IMG/VR virus record: IMGVR_UViG_3300013121_000023
Location: 64,001 to 128,000 of that record
Source of the DNA: a virus
Taxonomy: Duplodnaviria > Caudoviricetes
Strand: one strand, 5' to 3'
DNA: 64,000 nucleotides
The notes beneath the pieces are model-generated. The model was not told the DNA's origin. It saw only the letters and a list, made by a program, of their open reading frames with translations, and made no database searches. A program made the translations under genes and the position numbers. Position 1 is the first letter of the stretch; every line of letters starts with the position of its first letter. Shown piece by piece: positions 44,142 to 62,253 of this stretch.

Positions 44142-44197
44142 CGGTGCGCCAAAACTGTCATAAGAAAAAAGATAGTACACGTTTGAGGTGAGCAATC

Positions 44198-46366: not shown

Positions 46367-46794
46367 ACATAGTAGCGTTTATTGTGGGCGACACACTAGT
46401 AATAGTTTCAGAAGGTGGGGATCTTTTCAGGGTTGACATGTGTAGCGCTCCTATTAGACAACGTATAGACCAGGTTGATAGCTTGGACGAGTTCGCATCG
46501 ATTATTTATGCAAACTCATTTGAGGCTGCGCCGAGTGCAAACGAGTCAATAGAGCTTATACGGTCTGCCGTGAACAATCCATGTCTACCTATGTGGTTTG
46601 TACAAGATCCTTTTGTGGTGTACGTACTACTGTGCCTGCCTTCGATTACGTGTTTCAATAAGGAGATTATTAAGTCGATAATGATGAATCAGGTAATCAA
46701 CATAACTCCATCTATTATAAGTATACTTCCAGAGTATATACAAATGTACATAATAGATCTAATGCGTACATCTATGCGCCTAAAAGAGGCATAA
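46363..46794 (+). CDS. hypothetical protein, paralog family A (divergent)
   Basis: IRSAVNNPCLPMWF; LPEYI. Confidence 0.55.
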   Translation: MNIVAFIVGDTLVIVSEGGDLFRVDMCSAPIRQRIDQVDSLDEFASIIYANSFEAAPSANESIELIRSAVNNPCLPMWFVQDPFVVYVLLCLPSITCFNKEIIKSIMMNQVINITPSIISILPEYIQMYIIDLMRTSMRLKEA

Positions 46795-46799
46795 GAACC

Positions 46800-49073: not shown

Positions 49074-49478
49074 AGGGTATATGTGGTGGTGTGTGACGAT
49101 CTCCCCAGCAGCTCACAAAAAGCTGTTCAGGGAGCACACGCACTCACCCAGTACATTCTACGTAACTTGCAAGAAGCCCAACAATGGGAAAAGGACTCAA
49201 ACGTCCTTGTGTTTCTGCGGGTGCCCGACGAGCAAGCCCTTATTTCTACAGCTGACAAGCTGAAGATTAATGGCGTTCCGGTGGAGGTGTTTACTGAGCC
49301 CGATTTGGGTAATAGGGCTACAGCACTGGCTGCGTCACCGTCAGCAGCCAAGCACCTCAAAAGATACCCACTGATGAAGTTACGAAAGCGGGCCTCGGCC
49401 CGCTTTCTTTTTAACTACCAAACATTATTCATTTACAGACATAAGATGTGTGAGAAAAAGACGTATTCTCAAATATAG
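49074..49478 (+). CDS. PTH2-family peptidyl-tRNA hydrolase-like protein
   Basis: RVYVVVCDDL...QKAVQGAHA...LVFLRVPDEQAL...FTEPDLGNRATALA. Confidence 0.75.
   Translation, partial: RVYVVVCDDLPSSSQKAVQGAHALTQYILRNLQEAQQWEKDSNVLVFLRVPDEQALISTADKLKINGVPVEVFTEPDLGNRATALAASPSAAKHLKRYPLMKLRKRASARFLFNYQTLFIYRHKMCEKKTYSQI
49384..49412 (+). terminator. intrinsic terminator inside the Pth ORF
   Basis: GAAAGCGGGC-CTCG-GCCCGCTTTC-TTTTT. Confidence 0.7.
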
Positions 49479-49487
49479 GAGAAATCT

Positions 49488-50342
49488 ATGCGCGCTCTTC
49501 CGATGATTGAAGCTGCTCCACATAAAGGCCAACTCTACTGTTCAGTGCGGTATGCAAAAAATTACGTAGCTGATAAAAAGGATTTCTTTATGCGTCTATT
49601 TAGCAAGCTCGGTACGCATACATGCGCGCCAGCAGCACACTGCTACACAGGAGATCCAGTAACCATATCTTCCATGTATTACGCATGCCCATTTTTGACG
49701 CATATCAAACCCACTTACCACAGATTGTCTTATCGGTGCGACCTGTTTGAAGATAAACTATCCACAGTTATCCCCAACAATACGGGAATACCGTTTCACA
49801 TATACGACTTTGAAATGCTTATGAATAGTCTGCAACGTGAAAATCAGATTGCTGTAGGTACTGCCATACAACTTCAAATTGGTCGTTTGTGGCAATGTCG
49901 TCAGCTACAAGAAGATTTGACTATGCATGGACGTTATCTCGGAGAAAGCAGAGATGGTCGCTCATCAGATGGGAATCATACGTCTGGTCTAAATATGATT
50001 CCATTTATAATACGTACCGATGGCGGTCAGTCGTCTGACAAGATTTCACTCAATGCGAAAAAGGAGGTGTTCTTGAAAACGCTACTTAATCCATCACCAC
50101 CAGTGACACAGATATACCCAATGTCGGCAGCACTTGATGAACTGCATACAGCCGACGAGATGAAAACAGCGAGGAGTCGTTATGAAGAGATATTGAAAGA
50201 GTTGCCGAAAGTGGATGAATTATCGTTGAAGACAACTTTTACTCTGTGCTTCTGTAACGTAAGCGCTGTCTCGTTTTTAGAAAGGTGTGAACATGTCGTA
50301 TTTCTTCACAAAAGACGATCTCTCGGTATCATACGGAACTAA
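49488..50342 (+). CDS. Cys-rich hypothetical protein, paralog family B
   Basis: CPFL...YRCDLF...RLWQCRQLQEDL..HG. Confidence 0.6.
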   Translation: MRALPMIEAAPHKGQLYCSVRYAKNYVADKKDFFMRLFSKLGTHTCAPAAHCYTGDPVTISSMYYACPFLTHIKPTYHRLSYRCDLFEDKLSTVIPNNTGIPFHIYDFEMLMNSLQRENQIAVGTAIQLQIGRLWQCRQLQEDLTMHGRYLGESRDGRSSDGNHTSGLNMIPFIIRTDGGQSSDKISLNAKKEVFLKTLLNPSPPVTQIYPMSAALDELHTADEMKTARSRYEEILKELPKVDELSLKTTFTLCFCNVSAVSFLERCEHVVFLHKRRSLGIIRN

Positions 50343-51426
50343 TCTGTATAACTGTTTGTACGATAATGACTTTTGGTCCAGCCTGTTGTCCAGAGTCTCG
50401 CTCAGACTAGGAATGTCTGCTTACGTAGGAAATGTTGGCGACGCTAGATCTAAAATATCGAAAGATAACTTCGATAAGCTAGTGTCTATTCTTAAAGAGA
50501 GTTGTTTTACTAAAGTCTACTCAAGAGGTGATTATCCGTCTTGTGAAGAGGTATATCTATCCGTAGCTGGATACGTGATTGTAGACGTATTCCAGGATAA
50601 CCATACATTCATATATGTAGGAATGTTCGATAGGGAGTCTGTTAGTAAGCTTAAATCCAAAATAGAGCATCTTGTAGAAAAAGTACCTGAAAATAAAGTT
50701 GATAACATACCGCGGGTACACGTCGTAGTTCAAACATCTAGCGGCCTAGACACTAGGGAATTTAATAGTGTCTATTGCAAGCTAGTTCGGGATAACTATG
50801 ACGCGCGCGTTCTTTCGCAGTGGGACAACGTTATTTCTGAGTTCAAGAAATCCGAGCCTGTGGCTAGAATGGCCATACTGAATGGCCCGCCAGGCACCGG
50901 TAAAACACATCTTATAAAGTCCATGCTGTTTGAAGATGGATTGTTTTGCCTTCTTCTGCCAAATGATTTGTTTGTAAACGTGGCCTCACCGGCCTTCCTC
51001 AACTTCTTGATAAATACAGCAGGGAGAATTTCACAGAAGTTGGTTCTTATACTTGAGGACGCCGATAGTCTATTGGAGGAGAGGTCCAACAAAGACGACG
51101 TTAATCCATTGGCGACGCTGCTCAATATGGCAGACGGAATATTGGGTAGAATATTGGATGTTCGTATGATTTTGACTACGAATAGAAAAGATCAAACGTA
51201 TGACGCCGCTACCCTGAGAGCTGGTAGGCTTCTTCACAACATAAACGTAGATAAGTTGGAAAAGAATGGTGTACTCAAAGCCTTTAGAAACATACTGGCT
51301 GACAATGGGATGTCTGAGAATGACATTCATTGCGAACTAGAAAAATTCGCGGCGGATCGCATGTCCATTGCCGATGTATATGCGATGGCGTTTGATGTGC
51401 TCAACAAGAGAAGAGAAGCAAAATGA
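50287..51426 (+). CDS. AAA+ ATPase
   Basis: Walker A GPPGTGKT, Walker B LILEDAD, LLNMADG, TTN, LRAGRL. Confidence 0.9.
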   Translation: MNMSYFFTKDDLSVSYGTNLYNCLYDNDFWSSLLSRVSLRLGMSAYVGNVGDARSKISKDNFDKLVSILKESCFTKVYSRGDYPSCEEVYLSVAGYVIVDVFQDNHTFIYVGMFDRESVSKLKSKIEHLVEKVPENKVDNIPRVHVVVQTSSGLDTREFNSVYCKLVRDNYDARVLSQWDNVISEFKKSEPVARMAILNGPPGTGKTHLIKSMLFEDGLFCLLLPNDLFVNVASPAFLNFLINTAGRISQKLVLILEDADSLLEERSNKDDVNPLATLLNMADGILGRILDVRMILTTNRKDQTYDAATLRAGRLLHNINVDKLEKNGVLKAFRNILADNGMSENDIHCELEKFAADRMSIADVYAMAFDVLNKRREAK

Positions 51427-52505
51427 TAGATCTAGGACCGATCAAAAACTACCTGTCTTTGGTTTGTACGGCAGACGATGCCGGTATCACATACGACAAA
51501 CTATTGAATGCGCTAACAATATCGCAAATGTTGTCGTATAAAGAGAGCTACGTAAGAGTACTGCGCTTGTCAAAGGACATGCTTTCACCTGACGGTAACA
51601 GGGTAATAAGTAAAAGAAACCTAGTAAAGTTGGAGAAGCAACTGTCTGCAAAGTTCTATCTAATGCAGCATGCAGGTAATAGAAAGTATTACGTATCCAA
51701 GGATGGGTGCGGTTTTCTGATGGTAGATGCTGGCGAGTACTTGTCTATAGTGGGGGCCGAACTGTGGTTCAGTAATCTACCAGGTGGGTCAGGTACTGAT
51801 GCAATTAAAAGCGCGCTAAGCCTCAGTAGATTGGAGGCAAGACCTACTGCGTGCGTCCACATGCTAGTAGCGCAGGGCGGTATTTTGACAGCCCGCCCAG
51901 TGTTCATAAAGGAAAGCAAGTTTGTAGTCTCTAACTACTCTTCAACGGTTAGGAACAAATGGGCGCACGCCGTATCAGCTATGTGTAGCGCTGAGCCACC
52001 AGCTAGACTGACTATACTGAATGGTCCGCCAGGAACTGGCAAGACACACTTGATAAAATCACTTCTGAGTAATAAGGATGTCAGTTGTTTGTTCATACCT
52101 AATGGTTTGTTTCCTAAGTTGGCCGATCCATCATTCATAGGTGCAGTCACGGACTTCTGCCGATCTACCGATCTACCTGTGCTTATTATGGAAGATGCCG
52201 ATGATGTATTGAGTTCCAGAGAAGAGGCAGGGACAGTGAACCCGTTGGCTACACTGCTTAATATGACAGATGGAATACTTGGTGTGATGCTGAACATTCG
52301 TGTGATTTTGACCACGAACAGAAAGGACCAATCTCTGGACAAAGCTTTGATCAGAGAGGGTCGTCTTCTAGAGCACATAGAGGTGGGGTATCTTTCTCCG
52401 AGCGAGGCTGTAGAGTGCGCCAAAGGGCTTGGCGCTTCTATAAAGAAGCCTTCAAACAGTATGCCTTTGTGTGATGTGTATGCTGCGATTAAGCAAAAGA
52501 TTTAG
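51423..52505 (+). CDS. AAA+ ATPase (tandem paralog)
   Basis: GPPGTGKT, LIMEDAD, LLNMTDG, TTNRKDQ, IREGRL. Confidence 0.9.
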   Translation: MIDLGPIKNYLSLVCTADDAGITYDKLLNALTISQMLSYKESYVRVLRLSKDMLSPDGNRVISKRNLVKLEKQLSAKFYLMQHAGNRKYYVSKDGCGFLMVDAGEYLSIVGAELWFSNLPGGSGTDAIKSALSLSRLEARPTACVHMLVAQGGILTARPVFIKESKFVVSNYSSTVRNKWAHAVSAMCSAEPPARLTILNGPPGTGKTHLIKSLLSNKDVSCLFIPNGLFPKLADPSFIGAVTDFCRSTDLPVLIMEDADDVLSSREEAGTVNPLATLLNMTDGILGVMLNIRVILTTNRKDQSLDKALIREGRLLEHIEVGYLSPSEAVECAKGLGASIKKPSNSMPLCDVYAAIKQKI

Positions 52506-52527
52506 GGTTTAAGTCATAAGAATTATG

Positions 52528-53033
52528 AGATGTTTAATTAGAGACCCCTCCAAAGAGGGTCTGCCTACAAACCCGGGCAGATGAAAACATAAAAGTGGGT
52601 TCTCAGTTAATGCGACATTAACTGAGTGTCTTGAAACCAAGTCCATAGTATGGACTCTGGGATGTGCCCAGCACATATACCCAGCACATATCGCGGCTAG
52701 CGCCCCGCGATTGGCTTGCGGCAAGGCAAGGTGTCAGTCACTCAAGGTAAGGTGTCGTTGCTACACGCCACCGAGTGACGACGTATAGGGTTTCAGTGTG
52801 AATCCCAGTGGGGGATAGCACGAAGTAGCATTTACAGCCCTATATTTCAAGCCTCCGCAATGTCATAGAAAGCAAGCATACAGCTAGAACGTTCATTCGC
52901 GAAGCTCGCTTTTCTTGTTCGGCGAGTTAGCACAGAACGATGCTGTGTGTTTGAGCCGTAGCGCAGCGGCGTAGGATATATTTTATCTGTGTGTGTGTGT
53001 GTGGGCTGCCGGAATAACCGGCAGCCTTTTTTT
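52528..53033 (+). ncRNA. large structured ncRNA candidate (~500 nt)
   Basis: No credible ORF; about ten inverted repeats; ATAAGA motif upstream and terminator downstream. Confidence 0.6.
53004..53033 (+). terminator. intrinsic terminator
   Basis: GGCTGCCGG-AATAA-CCGGCAGCC-T7. Confidence 0.85.
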
Positions 53034-53051
53034 AGTACCGATGGAGAAGCC

Positions 53052-54050
53052 ATGAAGATGAATATTTTGGGCCAGGAACGTTGTCTGTATAACGTACCCT
53101 ATCACATAGGGTTCAACACTATAAAATTTGTAAGGTCTTTGTACGCATGGCTCAGTGATTACGATCGTAAGCTAACGTGGATGACCGTAAGTTCACCGCG
53201 TCAATCAGCAGAATATTATCACTCCGTAGCTTTGGACAATGGTTATAAAGAAATATGGATGGCAGAGACGGGACTTACACGTTACGAACTAACTGCTCTT
53301 TTGCAATGGATGAGCATACTTCAGCGCGTAGTATTTGAAAAAATATCTCATTTTCCAGCTAGGGCGCTTTTCAGAAGGAATGAAGGTAAATTGGAGGTTC
53401 ACCCAGCAGCTATAGTAGGCGACTTCAATAAGGTATCTAAGTTTTCTCCAACCTATCGTAATTACGTTTCTATTGGAGTTGATACCCCATATGAAATTAT
53501 TGATATCTACGGCATACATGCACTTGTCGATAATTCTGATGAAGATAAACCATTTCACATGTTCCCTGTGGGAGCTAATGAATCCATTGCAAGTATATTC
53601 AGGTCTAACGATCAGTTTAAATTGACTGTCACTAGTAAGACTGAACTCATTAGCGGTATATACGAATCTGAAGCGGCTGCTAATCGTAATAAGATACACG
53701 CTGAAGGAAATAGAATTGCCAAGGCTTGCGTAGAAGATAAAGTGGCGATCAAAACAGATATTCTCATTGCTAGCCTAGAAACCTGTTTCATGTCTTTTTC
53801 GTGTATGGAGAGAGCAATAGCCGCCGTACTGTCTGACCCGGGGTATGAACAGCACAAGTCATCAGTTATAAACGTCATCCAAACAATCATATCTTGCTAC
53901 ATGGGACATATGTATTGGAGAGAGCAGTTTGATTTCTACATGGCCAGTAAATACGCTGTGCCGCAGATGTACTCTATAGATATGTCTTATGGTGATTTTG
54001 ACTTGGGTAAGCTTATAGATTATTGGAGGCCCTACATCGGTACGAAGTAG
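53052..54050 (+). CDS. hypothetical protein
   Basis: GGAG RBS before ATG53052. Confidence 0.65.
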   Translation: MKMNILGQERCLYNVPYHIGFNTIKFVRSLYAWLSDYDRKLTWMTVSSPRQSAEYYHSVALDNGYKEIWMAETGLTRYELTALLQWMSILQRVVFEKISHFPARALFRRNEGKLEVHPAAIVGDFNKVSKFSPTYRNYVSIGVDTPYEIIDIYGIHALVDNSDEDKPFHMFPVGANESIASIFRSNDQFKLTVTSKTELISGIYESEAAANRNKIHAEGNRIAKACVEDKVAIKTDILIASLETCFMSFSCMERAIAAVLSDPGYEQHKSSVINVIQTIISCYMGHMYWREQFDFYMASKYAVPQMYSIDMSYGDFDLGKLIDYWRPYIGTK

Positions 54051-54498: not shown

Positions 54499-54949
54499 GC
54501 GTGACTTGGAGCACAGAATTGCTGAAGAAACAAATATGTATCTTAAGGAGTTGTTGTATGATGATGCTAGAGGACTAAAATGTCTAGTAAAGAATGTTGT
54601 GGAGTGCATTATACAAAGGATTATCGATGAGAGTGTTTGCGCACAGCACTCAGCCAACACTGGTGTAATGATAACGGATATAAGTCATACGACCGCTAGA
54701 AAAATACTTGTCGATAAAGCCAACGTGCTGGCTGCTCATTTTGTGGACGCTGTTATAGATGCAAACTATAAGAAACTAACAGATAAAAAATACGTGGATG
54801 AAGCAAAAGAAATAGTATTTAGAGAATACAGTGATGCGCTTAATTATGAGTTGAAACACGCAGCCAGGGAACTGGCTAGGAAGCACGCAAGAGAAAAAGG
54901 GGAAAAGATCGTAAATAGTGTCATTAAAGGGTATAAAGATGGAGAATAG
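54491..54949 (+). CDS. hypothetical protein
   Basis: GGAGG RBS before MSKRDLE. Confidence 0.55.
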   Translation: MSKRDLEHRIAEETNMYLKELLYDDARGLKCLVKNVVECIIQRIIDESVCAQHSANTGVMITDISHTTARKILVDKANVLAAHFVDAVIDANYKKLTDKKYVDEAKEIVFREYSDALNYELKHAARELARKHAREKGEKIVNSVIKGYKDGE

Positions 54950-55223
54950 TATATCTGAGTGGGTAAGTTTCTTGATGGACAACGATATATACGTACGTGA
55001 GCACGATGATAAATATAGCATACTTATTCCATTCTATATAAGTAGCTACGGCCTCAGAACTCCGTTGGAAGCATCCATAAGCATCATAGATAGATTGGAG
55101 GAGAGTATCAGAAGTGCCCATCTTGGACACGAGGAAATTATAGATATACGCAGCAAAATAGTGCTTATACAAAAAGCTGCTATTTTGTTTTTGGGAACAG
55201 CTCCAGTAGGGGTGATTACATGA
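54939..55223 (+). CDS. hypothetical protein
   Basis: Coupled ORF. Confidence 0.5.
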   Translation: MENSISEWVSFLMDNDIYVREHDDKYSILIPFYISSYGLRTPLEASISIIDRLEESIRSAHLGHEEIIDIRSKIVLIQKAAILFLGTAPVGVIT

Positions 55224-59393: not shown

Positions 59394-59406
59394 GAAAGAT
59401 TGTTTG

Positions 59407-59479
59407 TAGGACGCCCGGGACTTGAACCCGGAACCTGCGGATTAAAAGTCCGCTGCTCTACCTATTGAGCTAGCGACCC
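59407..59479 (-). tRNA. tRNA-Lys(TTT)
   Basis: Cloverleaf; anticodon arm GCGGA-CTTTTAA-TCCGC; GGTTCAAGTCC. Confidence 0.9.
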
Positions 59480-59490
59480 GAAGGAGAACC

Positions 59491-59799
59491 ATGACAACAG
59501 CAGCGCGCATGAGGGATTTGGTGGGCGAATATACCAAAAAAGTCATTAGTGAAAATGAGGAACATATAAATGAAAACTTGCTACCGATATTCCTTAAAGA
59601 CTTGTATTCTTGCATAGAATCAGCTGCATCTAAGGGACAGCGCACATACCAACATGCTATAAATCTTACAACCTTGAAGGTGCTGCATTTGGTTGTTCCA
59701 CAATTGAGAGATCGAGGTTATTTGGTAGAGTATATTACTAGTAGTACTACACAGCATCTTATGTACATGAACGTATCTTGGTCATTACTTGGTAGCTAA
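59491..59799 (+). CDS. hypothetical protein
   Basis: AAGGAG RBS. Confidence 0.55.
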   Translation: MTTAARMRDLVGEYTKKVISENEEHINENLLPIFLKDLYSCIESAASKGQRTYQHAINLTTLKVLHLVVPQLRDRGYLVEYITSSTTQHLMYMNVSWSLLGS

Positions 59800-60205
59800 A
59801 AAAGAAGAGAGCGAAAGCTCTCTTCTTTAAATACTTGAATCTATGCGCCTCAATGTATGAGGCCATTACCTCTGCAATGTAGTCGGGGGCAATTCCCCGA
59901 AGTGCATTGCGACTGAGCACTTTTGCGGTACCCTTCCCCCACGGTACCTTCACTGCCTCAATATATGGTTTGCCCTCCCCTTCTGGATGGCGCATTGTTA
60001 GCAAGTGTCTCGCTGCCTGCATCAGCAGGGAGCTTACCTCCTTCGGCTCCTCCAGCCAAAGGATGTGGATTACTGGGTGGTTCAGCACCACCCTCAATTG
60101 CTTTATGGTTTCTTCATTTGCAATATCAGTGTACCTAGTGCCCTCATGTACGAATGTCCTAATGTCCAACAGGGCCTTCCGAAGGCCCTCTATGTTTTCG
60201 TACAT
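59759..60205 (-). CDS. hypothetical protein, paralog family A
   Basis: LRVVLNHPVIHILW; IAPDYI; ATAAGA and AGGAGG upstream. Confidence 0.6.
   Translation of the reverse strand: MYENIEGLRKALLDIRTFVHEGTRYTDIANEETIKQLRVVLNHPVIHILWLEEPKEVSSLLMQAARHLLTMRHPEGEGKPYIEAVKVPWGKGTAKVLSRNALRGIAPDYIAEVMASYIEAHRFKYLKKRAFALFFFSYQVMTKIRSCT
59791..59828. terminator. bidirectional terminator
   Basis: AAAAAAGAAGAGAGC-GAAA-GCTCTCTTCTTT between convergent genes. Confidence 0.75.
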
Positions 60206-60318
60206 AGTACCTCCTTTCATATATCTTATGCCATTTTTACGAATAAATTAAGGTACACATAAGTAATAATCGAGGGGCTAAAGAAATGGAAGGATAGCTC
60301 CATCTCTAATAAGTGTTG

Positions 60319-60390
60319 TGCCCCAGAGAGGAATCGAACCTCCTTTAGCCTCCTTGTAAGGGAGGTGCCGGACCAGCTGGCTCCTGGGGC
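60319..60390 (-). tRNA. tRNA-Val(TAC)
   Basis: CCTCC-CTTACAA-GGAGG; GGTTCGATTCC. Confidence 0.85.
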
Positions 60391-60686
60391 AACTGTAACT
60401 TAGATATATCCAAAGAAAGGGAAATCAGCATACCAATGAATTGGTCTCTTCCTTTTTCTACTTCTGTTATGAATTCCGAAACCAATTTGGTTTCGGTCGT
60501 GCCATTTGACTCTATTGTCATGTTCATGTTATGAAAACATGACGATGCTGAATCTGGCCATATTGTGTGTGATACTTTATTAAACCGTTTGTGGAATAGA
60601 TGCCACGCATCTCTAAAGCAGTCTGTTACATAGACCATAACCACCAGTTCTTTTCTTTCTGTGTCCTTTATGAAGTAAACGTTCAT
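60345..60686 (-). CDS. hypothetical protein overlapping tRNA-Val
   Basis: AAGGA RBS; 113 aa. Confidence 0.5.
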   Translation of the reverse strand: MNVYFIKDTERKELVVMVYVTDCFRDAWHLFHKRFNKVSHTIWPDSASSCFHNMNMTIESNGTTETKLVSEFITEVEKGRDQFIGMLISLSLDISKLQLPQEPAGPAPPLQGG

Positions 60687-60722
60687 TCTTCATTCCTTTC
60701 ATTTTTACTCATATAGTAACAG

Positions 60723-60796
60723 TGGGACCACTCGGATTCGAACCGAGAACATCCCGGTTATGAGCCGGGGGCTCTGACCGATTGAGCTATAGTCCC
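60723..60796 (-). tRNA. tRNA-CAT, probably Ile2 (lysidine)
   Basis: CCCGG-CTCATAA-CCGGG; paired 1:72, so not an initiator. Confidence 0.85.
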
Positions 60797-60875
60797 AAAC
60801 AAGCCGTTTTTAAATAAACGGCAAGGATTTATTGCATGACGTGGCCTCAGCCCGCCTTATCTATGCAATACATCG

Positions 60876-60947
60876 AGCCCACTATGGGATTTGAACCCAT
60901 GACCTACGGTTTACAAAACCGTTGCTCTACCACTGAGCTATGTGGGC
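60876..60947 (-). tRNA. tRNA-Thr(TGT)
   Basis: ACGGT-TTTGTAA-ACCGT; canonical cloverleaf. Confidence 0.92.
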
Positions 60948-60950
60948 AGG

Positions 60951-61060
60951 AGCGACAGGCCCGAGTCGAACGGGCGACCAACGGAAAACCGCTGCTCTAC
61001 GGGGCCATCACCAGACAGAACGTTACTTGTCTGGCTTGTGACCTACTGAGCTACTGTCGC
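60951..61060 (-). ncRNA. tRNA-like RNA with D-loop hairpin insertion and 4-nt anticodon loop
   Basis: Perfect acceptor GCGACAG/CTGTCGC; T arm GCCCG-TTCGACT-CGGGC. Confidence 0.7.
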
Positions 61061-61083
61061 AAAAAAGGCTTATATAGCCTTTG

Positions 61084-61155
61084 TGGATCGTCTAGGAATT
61101 GAACCTAGGCACAGCGCTTATAAGACGCCGCAGGGCAACCAGCCCGTCACGATCC
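61084..61155 (-). tRNA. tRNA-Ile(TAT)
   Basis: GGCGT-CTTATAA-GCGCT; GGTTCAATTCC. Confidence 0.8.
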
Positions 61156-61234
61156 ATAAGAGGTACACCGGAGACCCGATGAAGCCTTCCGCCAGCATGG
61201 TAGGAAGAAGGAGTGTCACCACGATGTACCTCGG

Positions 61235-61306
61235 CATCCCTGACAGGATTTGAACCTGTGACCCGGAGATTAGAAATCTCCTGCTCTTCCGCTGAGCTAC
61301 AGGGAC
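61235..61306 (-). tRNA. tRNA-Arg(TCT)
   Basis: GGAGA-TTTCTAA-TCTCC. Confidence 0.92.
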
Positions 61307-61544
61307 ATCTACGCCTTCACTCATATTTCTTATTGCGCTATTTATTTGATTTTTTCTTACGGTAGCTAAAAATAGATAGGGTTTGCTGATATAGGAGTAA
61401 GTTGGCCCGCCGTCATGATCGCCGTTATACCGGATGGAGTCTGGAGTACAGCTACTATCAACCGGGCCGAGAAGATAGATTTACAACGAACTGGTGTGGT
61501 TCGTATGACTAACGGTCTTTCGGGGCGCCTCATCAAGACCGCTG

Positions 61545-61623
61545 TGCTCTTGGCAGGAGTCGAACCTGCAAATAATAAAGCCGCTTTTGAAACGGCCGCG
61601 TCTGCCTATTTCGCCACAAGAGC
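61545..61623 (-). tRNA. tRNA-Leu(CAA)
   Basis: GCCGT-TTCAAAA-GCGGC; T-rich 10-nt variable region. Confidence 0.85.
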
Positions 61624-61682
61624 TTTGGCCGTCACCCCCCACACCAACTACTAGAGCTGTGTGGGGGGGGGGTTTCGTAGGT

Positions 61683-61781
61683 AGACCCCGAGTTAGAAAG
61701 CCGTTCTGCATCTTCAGTATTCGGCGAAGAAAAAGAGAGTTGCACTCTTTTCGGGCGTGTATGGCTTTCTTGGTGGGGTCT
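61683..61781 (-). ncRNA. Y-RNA-like RNA 2
   Basis: AGACCCC/GGGGTCT terminal stem; T-arm-like AAGAG-TGCAACT-CTCTT followed by a closed hairpin. Confidence 0.6.
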
Positions 61782-61865
61782 TGGAAAGCGAAGAGGAATT
61801 GAACCTCTTATCTCCATTTCGGTAGTTGGCCTAGATGGATGGTTTTTGCCTTTAACCTACGCTTC
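61782..61865 (-). ncRNA. tRNA-like RNA with 17-nt anticodon loop
   Basis: D stem GGTT/AACC, TCCAT/ATGGA stem, GGTTCAATTCC, encoded CCA. Confidence 0.6.
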
Positions 61866-61870
61866 ATAAT

Positions 61871-62016
61871 GAGACCCGAGTTACTGCACCATTGTCCTTG
61901 TTAGGACTGGTTTTGGTTACCAGTTGCCGACCACCGGCACCTACCCCTTATACGGGGTAGCTAGGATTCGAACCTAGTTTTTGGGGTTGCGTGTAGGATG
62001 CAGTTGTTTGGGTCTC
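61871..62016 (-). ncRNA. Y-RNA-like RNA 1 / circularly permuted tRNA-Trp-like domain
   Basis: Order is T arm, loop-closed acceptor, D arm, anticodon arm, all inside a terminal stem. Confidence 0.7.
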
Positions 62017-62018
62017 GG

Positions 62019-62100
62019 TGCTGAGAGAGGGACTCGAACCCTCACGGTTTTACCCGCCGGTACCTAAAACCGGGGCGTCTACCTATTCCGCCACCTCAGC
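62019..62100 (-). tRNA. tRNA-Leu(TAG)
   Basis: CCGGT-TTTAGGT-ACCGG; long variable arm. Confidence 0.92.
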
Positions 62101-62174
62101 AAGAAAGGGTGTAAGTAACGTGTGTAGGGACGAACGGCGAAGAACATCCAAGTACTCACGTTAAGCACACCCTG

Positions 62175-62253
62175 TGGGGTAGATAGGGATCGCACCTATC
62201 AGCTCTGGGCAGCGGTTTTACAGACCGCCTGAAGCACTAGCTTCGTCTACCCC
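62175..62253 (-). tRNA. non-canonical tRNA-Tyr(GTA)
   Basis: GCGGT-CTGTAAA-ACCGC; A73; T-loop TGCGATC; atypical D arm. Confidence 0.7.

Follow-up and report, generated by a model that had tools for sequence, protein, structure and literature searches.

A candidate large structured non-coding RNA linked to an AAA+ ATPase gene in an uncultured phage

A gene-free stretch located directly downstream of an AAA+ ATPase gene in the genome of an uncultured phage is best read, with a probability of roughly 0.6, as encoding an independently transcribed, stable and structured non-coding RNA of ~500 nt on the plus strand, which would act in trans and whose core would serve as a protein-recognition surface. 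The element most likely represents a new family of large phage non-coding RNA, a family thinly supported by comparison, the comparison set consisting of two distinct sequences: the element itself and a related locus in a second phage. The window analysed is a 64,000-nt stretch comprising bases 64001-128000 of the 177,132-bp host record, a complete phage genome with direct terminal repeats at its ends, and positions below refer to the window unless stated otherwise. The proposal of a structured, possibly new RNA of ~500 nt, made in the initial annotation of this DNA, is supported by the folding of the stretch (z -7.7), its terminator, the lack of a matching Rfam family and the homology with the second phage.

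Gene-free stretch, genomic setting and transcriptional frame

The interval 52506-53051 is one of four gaps of at least 250 nt without an ORF of at least 75 aa in the whole 177,132-bp genome; two of the other three are situated in the tRNA/Y-like RNA cluster and one is outside the window. Under translation table 11 it contains only two ORFs of at least 30 aa, both antisense (71 and 68 aa). Reading TAG as glutamine or TGA as tryptophan likewise yields no credible ORF, as the recoded frames cross the terminator and a (TG)8 tract and would require three to four recoded stops. The ORF-free character first ascribed to the stretch is thus real under all three codes.

Genes are encoded on the plus strand up to ~59,800, beyond which a tRNA cluster and more genes occupy the minus strand. 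The tRNA genes predicted in the window with ARAGORN are found at 59406-62253, which places the cluster ~6 kb from the element. The gene directly upstream of the element (51423..52505, plus strand) codes for an AAA+ ATPase of 360 aa (PF00004, E 2e-14) and is preceded by a tandem paralogue (50287..51426, plus strand). Downstream, the ATG of a 332-aa ORF with no assigned function (53052-54050) occurs 19 nt past the terminator. Pfam matches are nearly absent among the proteins neighbouring the element, and atlas look-ups provided no functional lead for either the ATPase or the downstream protein. More distant homologues of the ATPase adjoin RNA-repair or nucleotide genes on contigs of other phages: RlaP, a CCA-adding enzyme and RtcB (L094, 2331-7754), His_Phos_1 and an RNA ligase (L116, 1127-4077), and NAMPT and a DNA ligase (L092, 671-5182). 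The RNA-repair neighbours are loosely compatible with an RNA-related role for the ATPase.

The G+C content of the element is 49%, compared to ~43% in its surroundings. The plus strand (535 nt) folds at -212.8 kcal/mol, against -160.8 +/- 6.8 kcal/mol for dinucleotide shuffles (z -7.7), with a z of -5.4 for the minus strand. Sliding windows of 300 nt give plus-strand values of -3.2 to -4.5 across 52350-53099, against approximately -0.9 in the flanking coding sequence, and the minus-strand signal is mostly weaker than that of the plus strand. The folding excess is local and strand-biased. Of the repeats listed in the initial annotation, the two pairs of direct repeats and the perfect inverted repeats of 11, 9 and 8 bp were all recovered, and the other helices it named are present in the minimum-free-energy fold. 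A pseudoknot formed by CTTGAAA/TTTCAAG and TTGCGG/CCGCAA, also put forward there, finds no comparative backing; the crossing pairs that are conserved are others.

The 5' edge of the element is marked by a promoter-like motif, GTCATAAGAATT (52513..52524, plus strand), situated 8 nt past the stop codon of the ATPase gene. It belongs to the G-N-CATAAGA family, a recurrent gene-start motif with the consensus GGCATAAGAWAT, downstream of which atgaaaggagg and a start codon typically occur. There are 20 exact G.CATAAGA copies in the whole genome, 12 of which have, in the 60 nt downstream, a Shine-Dalgarno sequence and the start of an ORF of at least 60 aa on the same strand. Among 60 permuted 7-mers used as a control, 5.9% of copies have a ribosome-binding site and gene start within 60 nt downstream, with a maximum of 24%. 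Variants of the motif also stand before tRNA genes, and copies occur in the window at 44157-44168, 46788-46799 and 49438-49449 (plus strand) and at 60221-60232 and 61325-61336 (minus strand). These position statistics suggest that G-N-CATAAGA is probably the main promoter element of this phage. It does not match the sigma-70 -10 consensus, and a sigma-70 consensus scan upstream of the element found nothing. The proposal that the RNA has its own promoter draws indirect support from the membership of ATAAGA in the recurrent gene-start motif and none from a sigma-70 signal. TATAGGG was discarded as a T7-like promoter as it has no recurrent context. A similar motif, GGGATAAGA, is present in the related phage, where it overlaps the stop codon of the ATPase gene at the corresponding edge of the element and occurs twice more in intergenic gaps within the 13.7 kb of that phage that are readable.

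The 3' edge is formed by a canonical intrinsic terminator, as had been annotated (GGGCUGCCGG-AAUAA-CCGGCAGCCU followed by U7; 53003..53033, plus strand), with ten base pairs, eight of which are G-C. The (TG)8 tract (52988..53003, plus strand) occurs directly before its stem and is predicted in the minimum-free-energy fold to pair with CACAUAU repeats at 52672-89. The related phage has a 13-bp terminal hairpin with a poor U-tract, which is not called as a terminator. Taken from sequence features, the element would be framed as its own transcription unit of ~505 nt, while transcripts may also read through from the ATPase genes.

A further recurrent module, GTAGCTAAAAAGAAAG, is followed directly by a G+C-rich hairpin and a T-run. 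Copies are located at 1149-1165 and 59792-59807 (plus strand) and 49404-49419 (minus strand) in the window, and at 53698, 54638, 55006 and 56892 in the genome. The module looks like a conserved cassette combining a stop codon with a bidirectional terminator and often has a promoter-like motif on the opposite strand at a distance of 16-35 nt. Two copies flank the sole other large ORF-free gap outside the tRNA cluster, a 432-nt stretch at genome positions 54600-55031 (9.4 kb before the window start) with several G+C-rich hairpins inside it. This gap is without similarity to the element; a further RNA gene and a divergent control region are both conceivable.

Predicted architecture and the related locus in a second phage

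The proposed RNA (52527..53033, plus strand, ~505 nt) takes its 5' end from the promoter-like motif and its 3' end from the U-tract of the terminator. The 5' domain (52542..52711) consists of six consecutive local hairpins (52542-62, 52560-81, 52602-26, 52640-56, 52657-71 and 52690-711) and includes the tandem repeat ATGTGCCCAGCAC/ATATACCCAGCAC (52662-87). It is followed by a core domain (52712..52865), with a z of -4.6 on the plus and -3.0 on the minus strand, which is closed by the long-range helices UGGC/GUCA, UUGCGG/CCGCAA and AGGC/GCCU. Hairpin S1 (52751..52769) within the core combines the stem GGUGU/ACGCC with a 9-nt loop, CGUUGCUAC, and carries the sequence GUCGUUGCUACACGCC (52754-52769), referred to below as block 1. 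The adjacent B domain (52784..52844) is composed of helix B (UAUAGGGU/GCCCUAUA, blocks 2 and 4), helix B2 (UUC/GAA) and a variable apical hairpin, and harbours block 3, CGAAGUAGCA (52821-30), in its 3' internal loop. A long irregular hairpin with G.U pairs (52873..52953), in which CAAGCAUACAGC pairs with GCUGUGUGUUUG, CGUUC with GAACG and AGCUCGCU with GGCGAGUU, separates the core from the terminal region. All of these features are on the plus strand.

The nearest relative of the ATPase, P0002 (45% identity), is encoded on the second-phage contigs L002, L003 and L110-L115, where the shared proteins are 43-50% identical to those of the window. In this phage the ATPase gene is followed by a gap of 749 nt without a called gene, of which seven copies were recovered, all identical. 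The ATPase gene is the sole gene to keep its adjacency to the element, and both flanks of the pair differ between the phages: the genes upstream of the ATPase-plus-gap pair are unrelated, and the downstream gene codes for a 332-aa protein here and for a 1333-aa protein in the second phage, a homologue of which is encoded 55 kb away in the genome of the window. It follows that the ATPase gene and the element move as a unit.

Little of the two gaps can be aligned apart from ~40 nt in four colinear blocks of identical sequence. Block 1 (GTCGTTGCTACACGCC) is identical at 16 of 16 positions (window 52754-69, L002 3175-90), block 2 (TATAGGGT, RNA UAUAGGGU) begins at 52784 in the window and 3214 in L002, block 3 (CGAAGTAGCA, RNA CGAAGUAGCA) at 52821 and 3242, respectively, and block 4 consists of the CCCTA (RNA CCCUA) common to both gaps. 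Blocks 1 and 3 are spaced by 52 nt in both phages. No peptide is common to the two gaps, and a conserved micro-peptide was rejected on this basis.

Base pairing was compared between the phages by means of pair tables checked by script, since MAFFT misaligned the variable linkers. Pairing is retained in S1, B, B2 and the apical hairpin, and all pairs of the B domain are standard in both phages. In S1, GGUGU/ACGCC is replaced by GCGU/ACGC in the second phage, with a change from U.G to C-G. Helix B reads UAUAGGGUC/GACCCUA-C-UA there, in which a U.G pair has become U-A and one C-G pair has been gained, and helix B2 has the same sequence, UUC/GAA, in the two phages. The apical hairpin, AUCCC/GGGAU with GUG/CAC here, is replaced by a wholly different sequence, CUCC/GGAG. 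Block 1 is further complementary to block 3: this helix A pairs at 9 of 11 positions here and 11 of 11 in the second phage, and is centred on six invariant pairs, UGCUAC/GUAGCA. Helices A (blocks 1 and 3) and B (blocks 2 and 4) cross, with the order A, B, A', B', and the core would therefore form either a pseudoknot, through a contact between loop and internal loop, or alternative states. In the second phage, a single GAC is contested by helices A and B. Changes in the pairing are one-sided, aside from the one hairpin replaced, and the conserved blocks of A and B are invariant across the two sequences. S1, A, B and the 3' hairpin all contain G.U pairs, which would correspond to A.C mismatches on the other strand, such that these helices can form on the plus strand only. 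The mutual pairing of all four invariant blocks is the pattern expected from selection on RNA structure and is difficult to account for in duplex DNA. The existence of a homologue in a second phage that retains the pairing blocks speaks for a function.

The plans of the two elements are alike, each comprising 5' hairpins with a 13-14-nt tandem repeat, a core, a long hairpin and a strong terminal hairpin, a likeness that is a description from two sequences rather than proof. The sequences of the 5' domain are not kept in the related phage, in which this position is likewise occupied by consecutive hairpins and a 14-nt tandem repeat. A long hairpin of ~120 nt occupies the position equivalent to that of the irregular hairpin (L002 3288-3407), and a helix closing the core is possible there, although absent from its full-length fold prediction. 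The related locus is moderately structured overall (z -4.8 on the plus and -4.0 on the minus strand), and its core domain is unexceptional in nested folding. The related element also opens with a strong Shine-Dalgarno sequence, AAAGGAGGG, and a nine-codon mini-ORF (MKRYLFYTE; L002 2817-2861), a feature with no counterpart in the window. Elsewhere on the second-phage contigs (L110, 274-483 and 858-1050), two GG(G/A)ATAAGAATAGT motifs are each followed by ~200 nt that are gene-free up to the next ORF, which may be long leaders or further small RNAs.

Family searches and comparison with known RNAs

A cmscan search with the 4227 models of Rfam 15, including those for ROOL, GOLLD, OLE, raiA, HEARO, tmRNA, RNase P, group I and II introns, pRNA, Y RNA and riboswitches, identified only tRNAs in the window at gathering thresholds. 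With the E-value relaxed to 10, the stretch gave terminator-driven noise only, the best match being the L20 leader at 19.2 bits (gathering threshold 58.7). The stretch matches no family and is thus not a catalogued RNA, and the related locus has no Rfam match either. ARAGORN predicted no tRNA-like or tmRNA gene in the stretch and none in L110. The complete genome encodes neither an integrase nor a reverse transcriptase, and an attP site, a retron and a DGR RNA were rejected on this ground.

Further members were sought by several routes. Neither locus had a blastn match among 50,697 phage records or in E. coli genomes. Exact 14-mer searches of IMG/VR retrieved 87 stretches and the combination of blocks 2 and 3 a further 11 matches, all attributable to chance, while the three-block pattern had zero matches in this collection. 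Exact-pattern scans of the JGI metagenomes and of the GTDB genomes gave two chance matches each. Exact patterns overlook diverged members, and the JGI scan missed the pattern-bearing contig behind L115, so that the collections are incomplete and the pattern negatives are weak. Contigs encoding more distant ATPase homologues have no gap or unrelated short gaps in this position, and IMG/VR relatives retrieved through an ATPase alignment, or through a conserved 1020-aa protein with the whole records covered, are without the element. A corrected single-sequence covariance model (R2) aligned only hairpin S1 in the related locus and brought no gain, and a literature search returned nothing relevant to the element. 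The ATPase family is large and most of its members lack the element, the known distribution of which would comprise two phage lineages.

The size class of ROOL (RF03087) and GOLLD (RF01998), to which the initial annotation assigned the RNA, is supported by its length of ~500 nt. The element resembles these ornate RNAs, which are known from bacteria, prophages and phages and belong to the 0.5-0.8 kb class, in its many hairpins and its predicted long-range and crossing pairings, and in being phage-borne and a putative stand-alone gene, with a tRNA cluster in the same genome region. Unlike them, it matches neither model even at E-values up to 10, does not directly adjoin the tRNAs, is linked to an AAA+ ATPase gene and is found in two phage lineages. 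ROOL and GOLLD self-assemble via intermolecular loop contacts. The phi29 pRNA (RF00044), a phage RNA of ~120-174 nt with complementary loops, works with an ATPase that is a packaging motor of another class, and is to our knowledge the only well-known precedent for a partnership between a phage RNA and an ATPase. The element shares with pRNA the character of a structured phage RNA carrying mutually complementary sequences, the ATPase partnership being a supposition in the present case, and differs from it in lacking an Rfam match and in adjoining the ATPase gene; pRNA is not encoded beside its ATPase. By analogy with pRNA, ROOL and GOLLD, the complementarity of blocks 1 and 3 could in principle act between molecules. 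Structured riboswitch and attenuator leaders are similar in having a terminator directly before a gene and possible alternative pairings, but the element exceeds them several times in size, a long distance separates its core from the terminator, and each phage would have a different gene under control.

Two short motifs were proposed to link the element to the Y-like (YrlA-like) RNA candidates of the same phage. The link through GAGACCC did not hold up: this motif occurs in 12 copies in the window against 5 expected, mostly within coding sequence and with no wider shared context, and was rejected as a shared RNA motif. TACACGC is present at chance frequency overall (7 copies against 7.2 expected in the window), yet three of the seven copies are sense-strand copies in the three non-coding RNA candidates, one in each. 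In the Y-like candidates UACACGC occurs just inside the terminal stems (61755-61761 and 61989-61995, minus strand), and in the element within block 1 (52762-52768, plus strand). The chance of a heptamer from a 16-mer being common to both Y-like RNAs is roughly estimated at ~5 in 10,000, in a comparison made post hoc, and UACACGC may represent a shared protein-binding or processing site. Unlike Y RNAs, the element has neither a tRNA-like module nor a stem closing both RNA ends. No Ro60/TROVE gene was found in the phage, and RtcB is also absent. A Ro60-bound Y RNA was rejected, given the lack of a TROVE gene and of a terminal stem with a tRNA-like module.

Competing interpretations, proposed mode of action and significance

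The strongest rival is a cis-acting role, in which the stretch would be a structured leader, an attenuator or a 3' UTR, with the choice between pairings A and B gating the terminator or the structure stabilising the ATPase mRNA. This is considered unlikely, despite several features in its favour: all neighbouring genes have the same direction, no terminator separates the ATPase stop codon from the element, and the next gene begins so soon after the terminator (19 nt) that there is no room for a promoter of its own and its expression therefore needs read-through. The competition of A and B for the same GAC in the related phage would also suit a switch. However, the gene to be regulated is unrelated in the two phages (332 aa versus 1333 aa), the conserved core is separated from the terminator by 160-190 nt and a long hairpin, and a length of ~500-750 nt far exceeds that of known attenuators. 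Rfam likewise provides no riboswitch or leader family match, and a promoter-like motif placed at the 5' boundary is more in keeping with a separate unit.

An element acting at the DNA level, such as an iteron-containing origin beside the gene of its initiator-like AAA+ protein, or a site for packaging or recombination, is more doubtful still. Direct repeats are present in both phages, as tandem pairs of 13 nt and 14 nt and a pair of 14-mers spaced 21 bp apart, and the minus strand also folds better than its shuffles. Initiator genes commonly adjoin their origins, and the kept adjacency to the AAA+ gene would fit this interpretation too. The stretch nevertheless contains no A+T-rich unwinding region, its G+C content being above that of its flanks, and the extreme of the cumulative GC skew is found at 122-124 kb, where the direction of transcription switches, rather than here. 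The genome ends are direct terminal repeats situated elsewhere, the ATPase is of the classical PF00004 type and not DnaA/Orc-like, and no integrase or reverse transcriptase is encoded in the genome. Furthermore, the interleaved A-B-A'-B' complementarity cannot be extruded by a duplex, several helices need G.U pairs and hence the plus strand, and the stretch is bounded like a transcription unit, by the motif and the terminator. A decayed gene or mobile-element remnant with no function of its own, in which the hairpins are incidental and only a short regulatory site is conserved, is barely credible: most of the 535 nt are unalignable and only the ~40 nt of the four blocks are identical, but there is hardly any room for spare DNA in this genome, a gap of 0.5-0.75 kb occurs at the same place in both phages despite rearranged flanks, and there is strong excess structure with no residual coding similarity.

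In the favoured interpretation of a trans-acting RNA, transcription would start a few bases past GTCATAAGAATT (52513-24) and stop at the terminator (53003-33), with some read-through feeding the next gene. The transcript would fold into four parts, namely the variable run of 5' hairpins, the conserved core, the long 3' hairpin and the terminator hairpin. The core would constitute the functional centre, in which the UGCUAC of the S1 loop (block 1) would pair with the GUAGCA of the internal loop of the B domain, crossing helix B and resulting in a pseudoknot or in two alternative states. The near invariance of this core suggests a protein-recognition surface, for which the upstream AAA+ ATPase would, from genetic linkage alone, be the likeliest partner. 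Rather than serving as a cis leader, the RNA would then operate in trans, be it as a scaffold, a decoy or a regulator. A more ambitious and rather improbable extension holds that the RNA founds an undescribed class of large phage RNAs that form an RNA-protein machine with a dedicated AAA+ ATPase, or that UGCUAC/GUAGCA pairing drives the formation of multimers; in either case RNA and ATPase would be a two-part module inherited together across genome rearrangement.

Large structured non-coding RNAs are rare, and work on the few known classes (ROOL, GOLLD, OLE and raiA) has been rewarding, in some cases revealing unexpected architectures made of RNA only. The element described here combines a clear transcription-unit frame with a small, nearly invariant and pseudoknot-capable core. 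The G-N-CATAAGA motif and the GTAGCTAAAAAGAAAG terminator module help to annotate a largely unannotated phage genome, and the linkage of the element to one protein gene supplies a concrete candidate partner, which most orphan RNAs lack.
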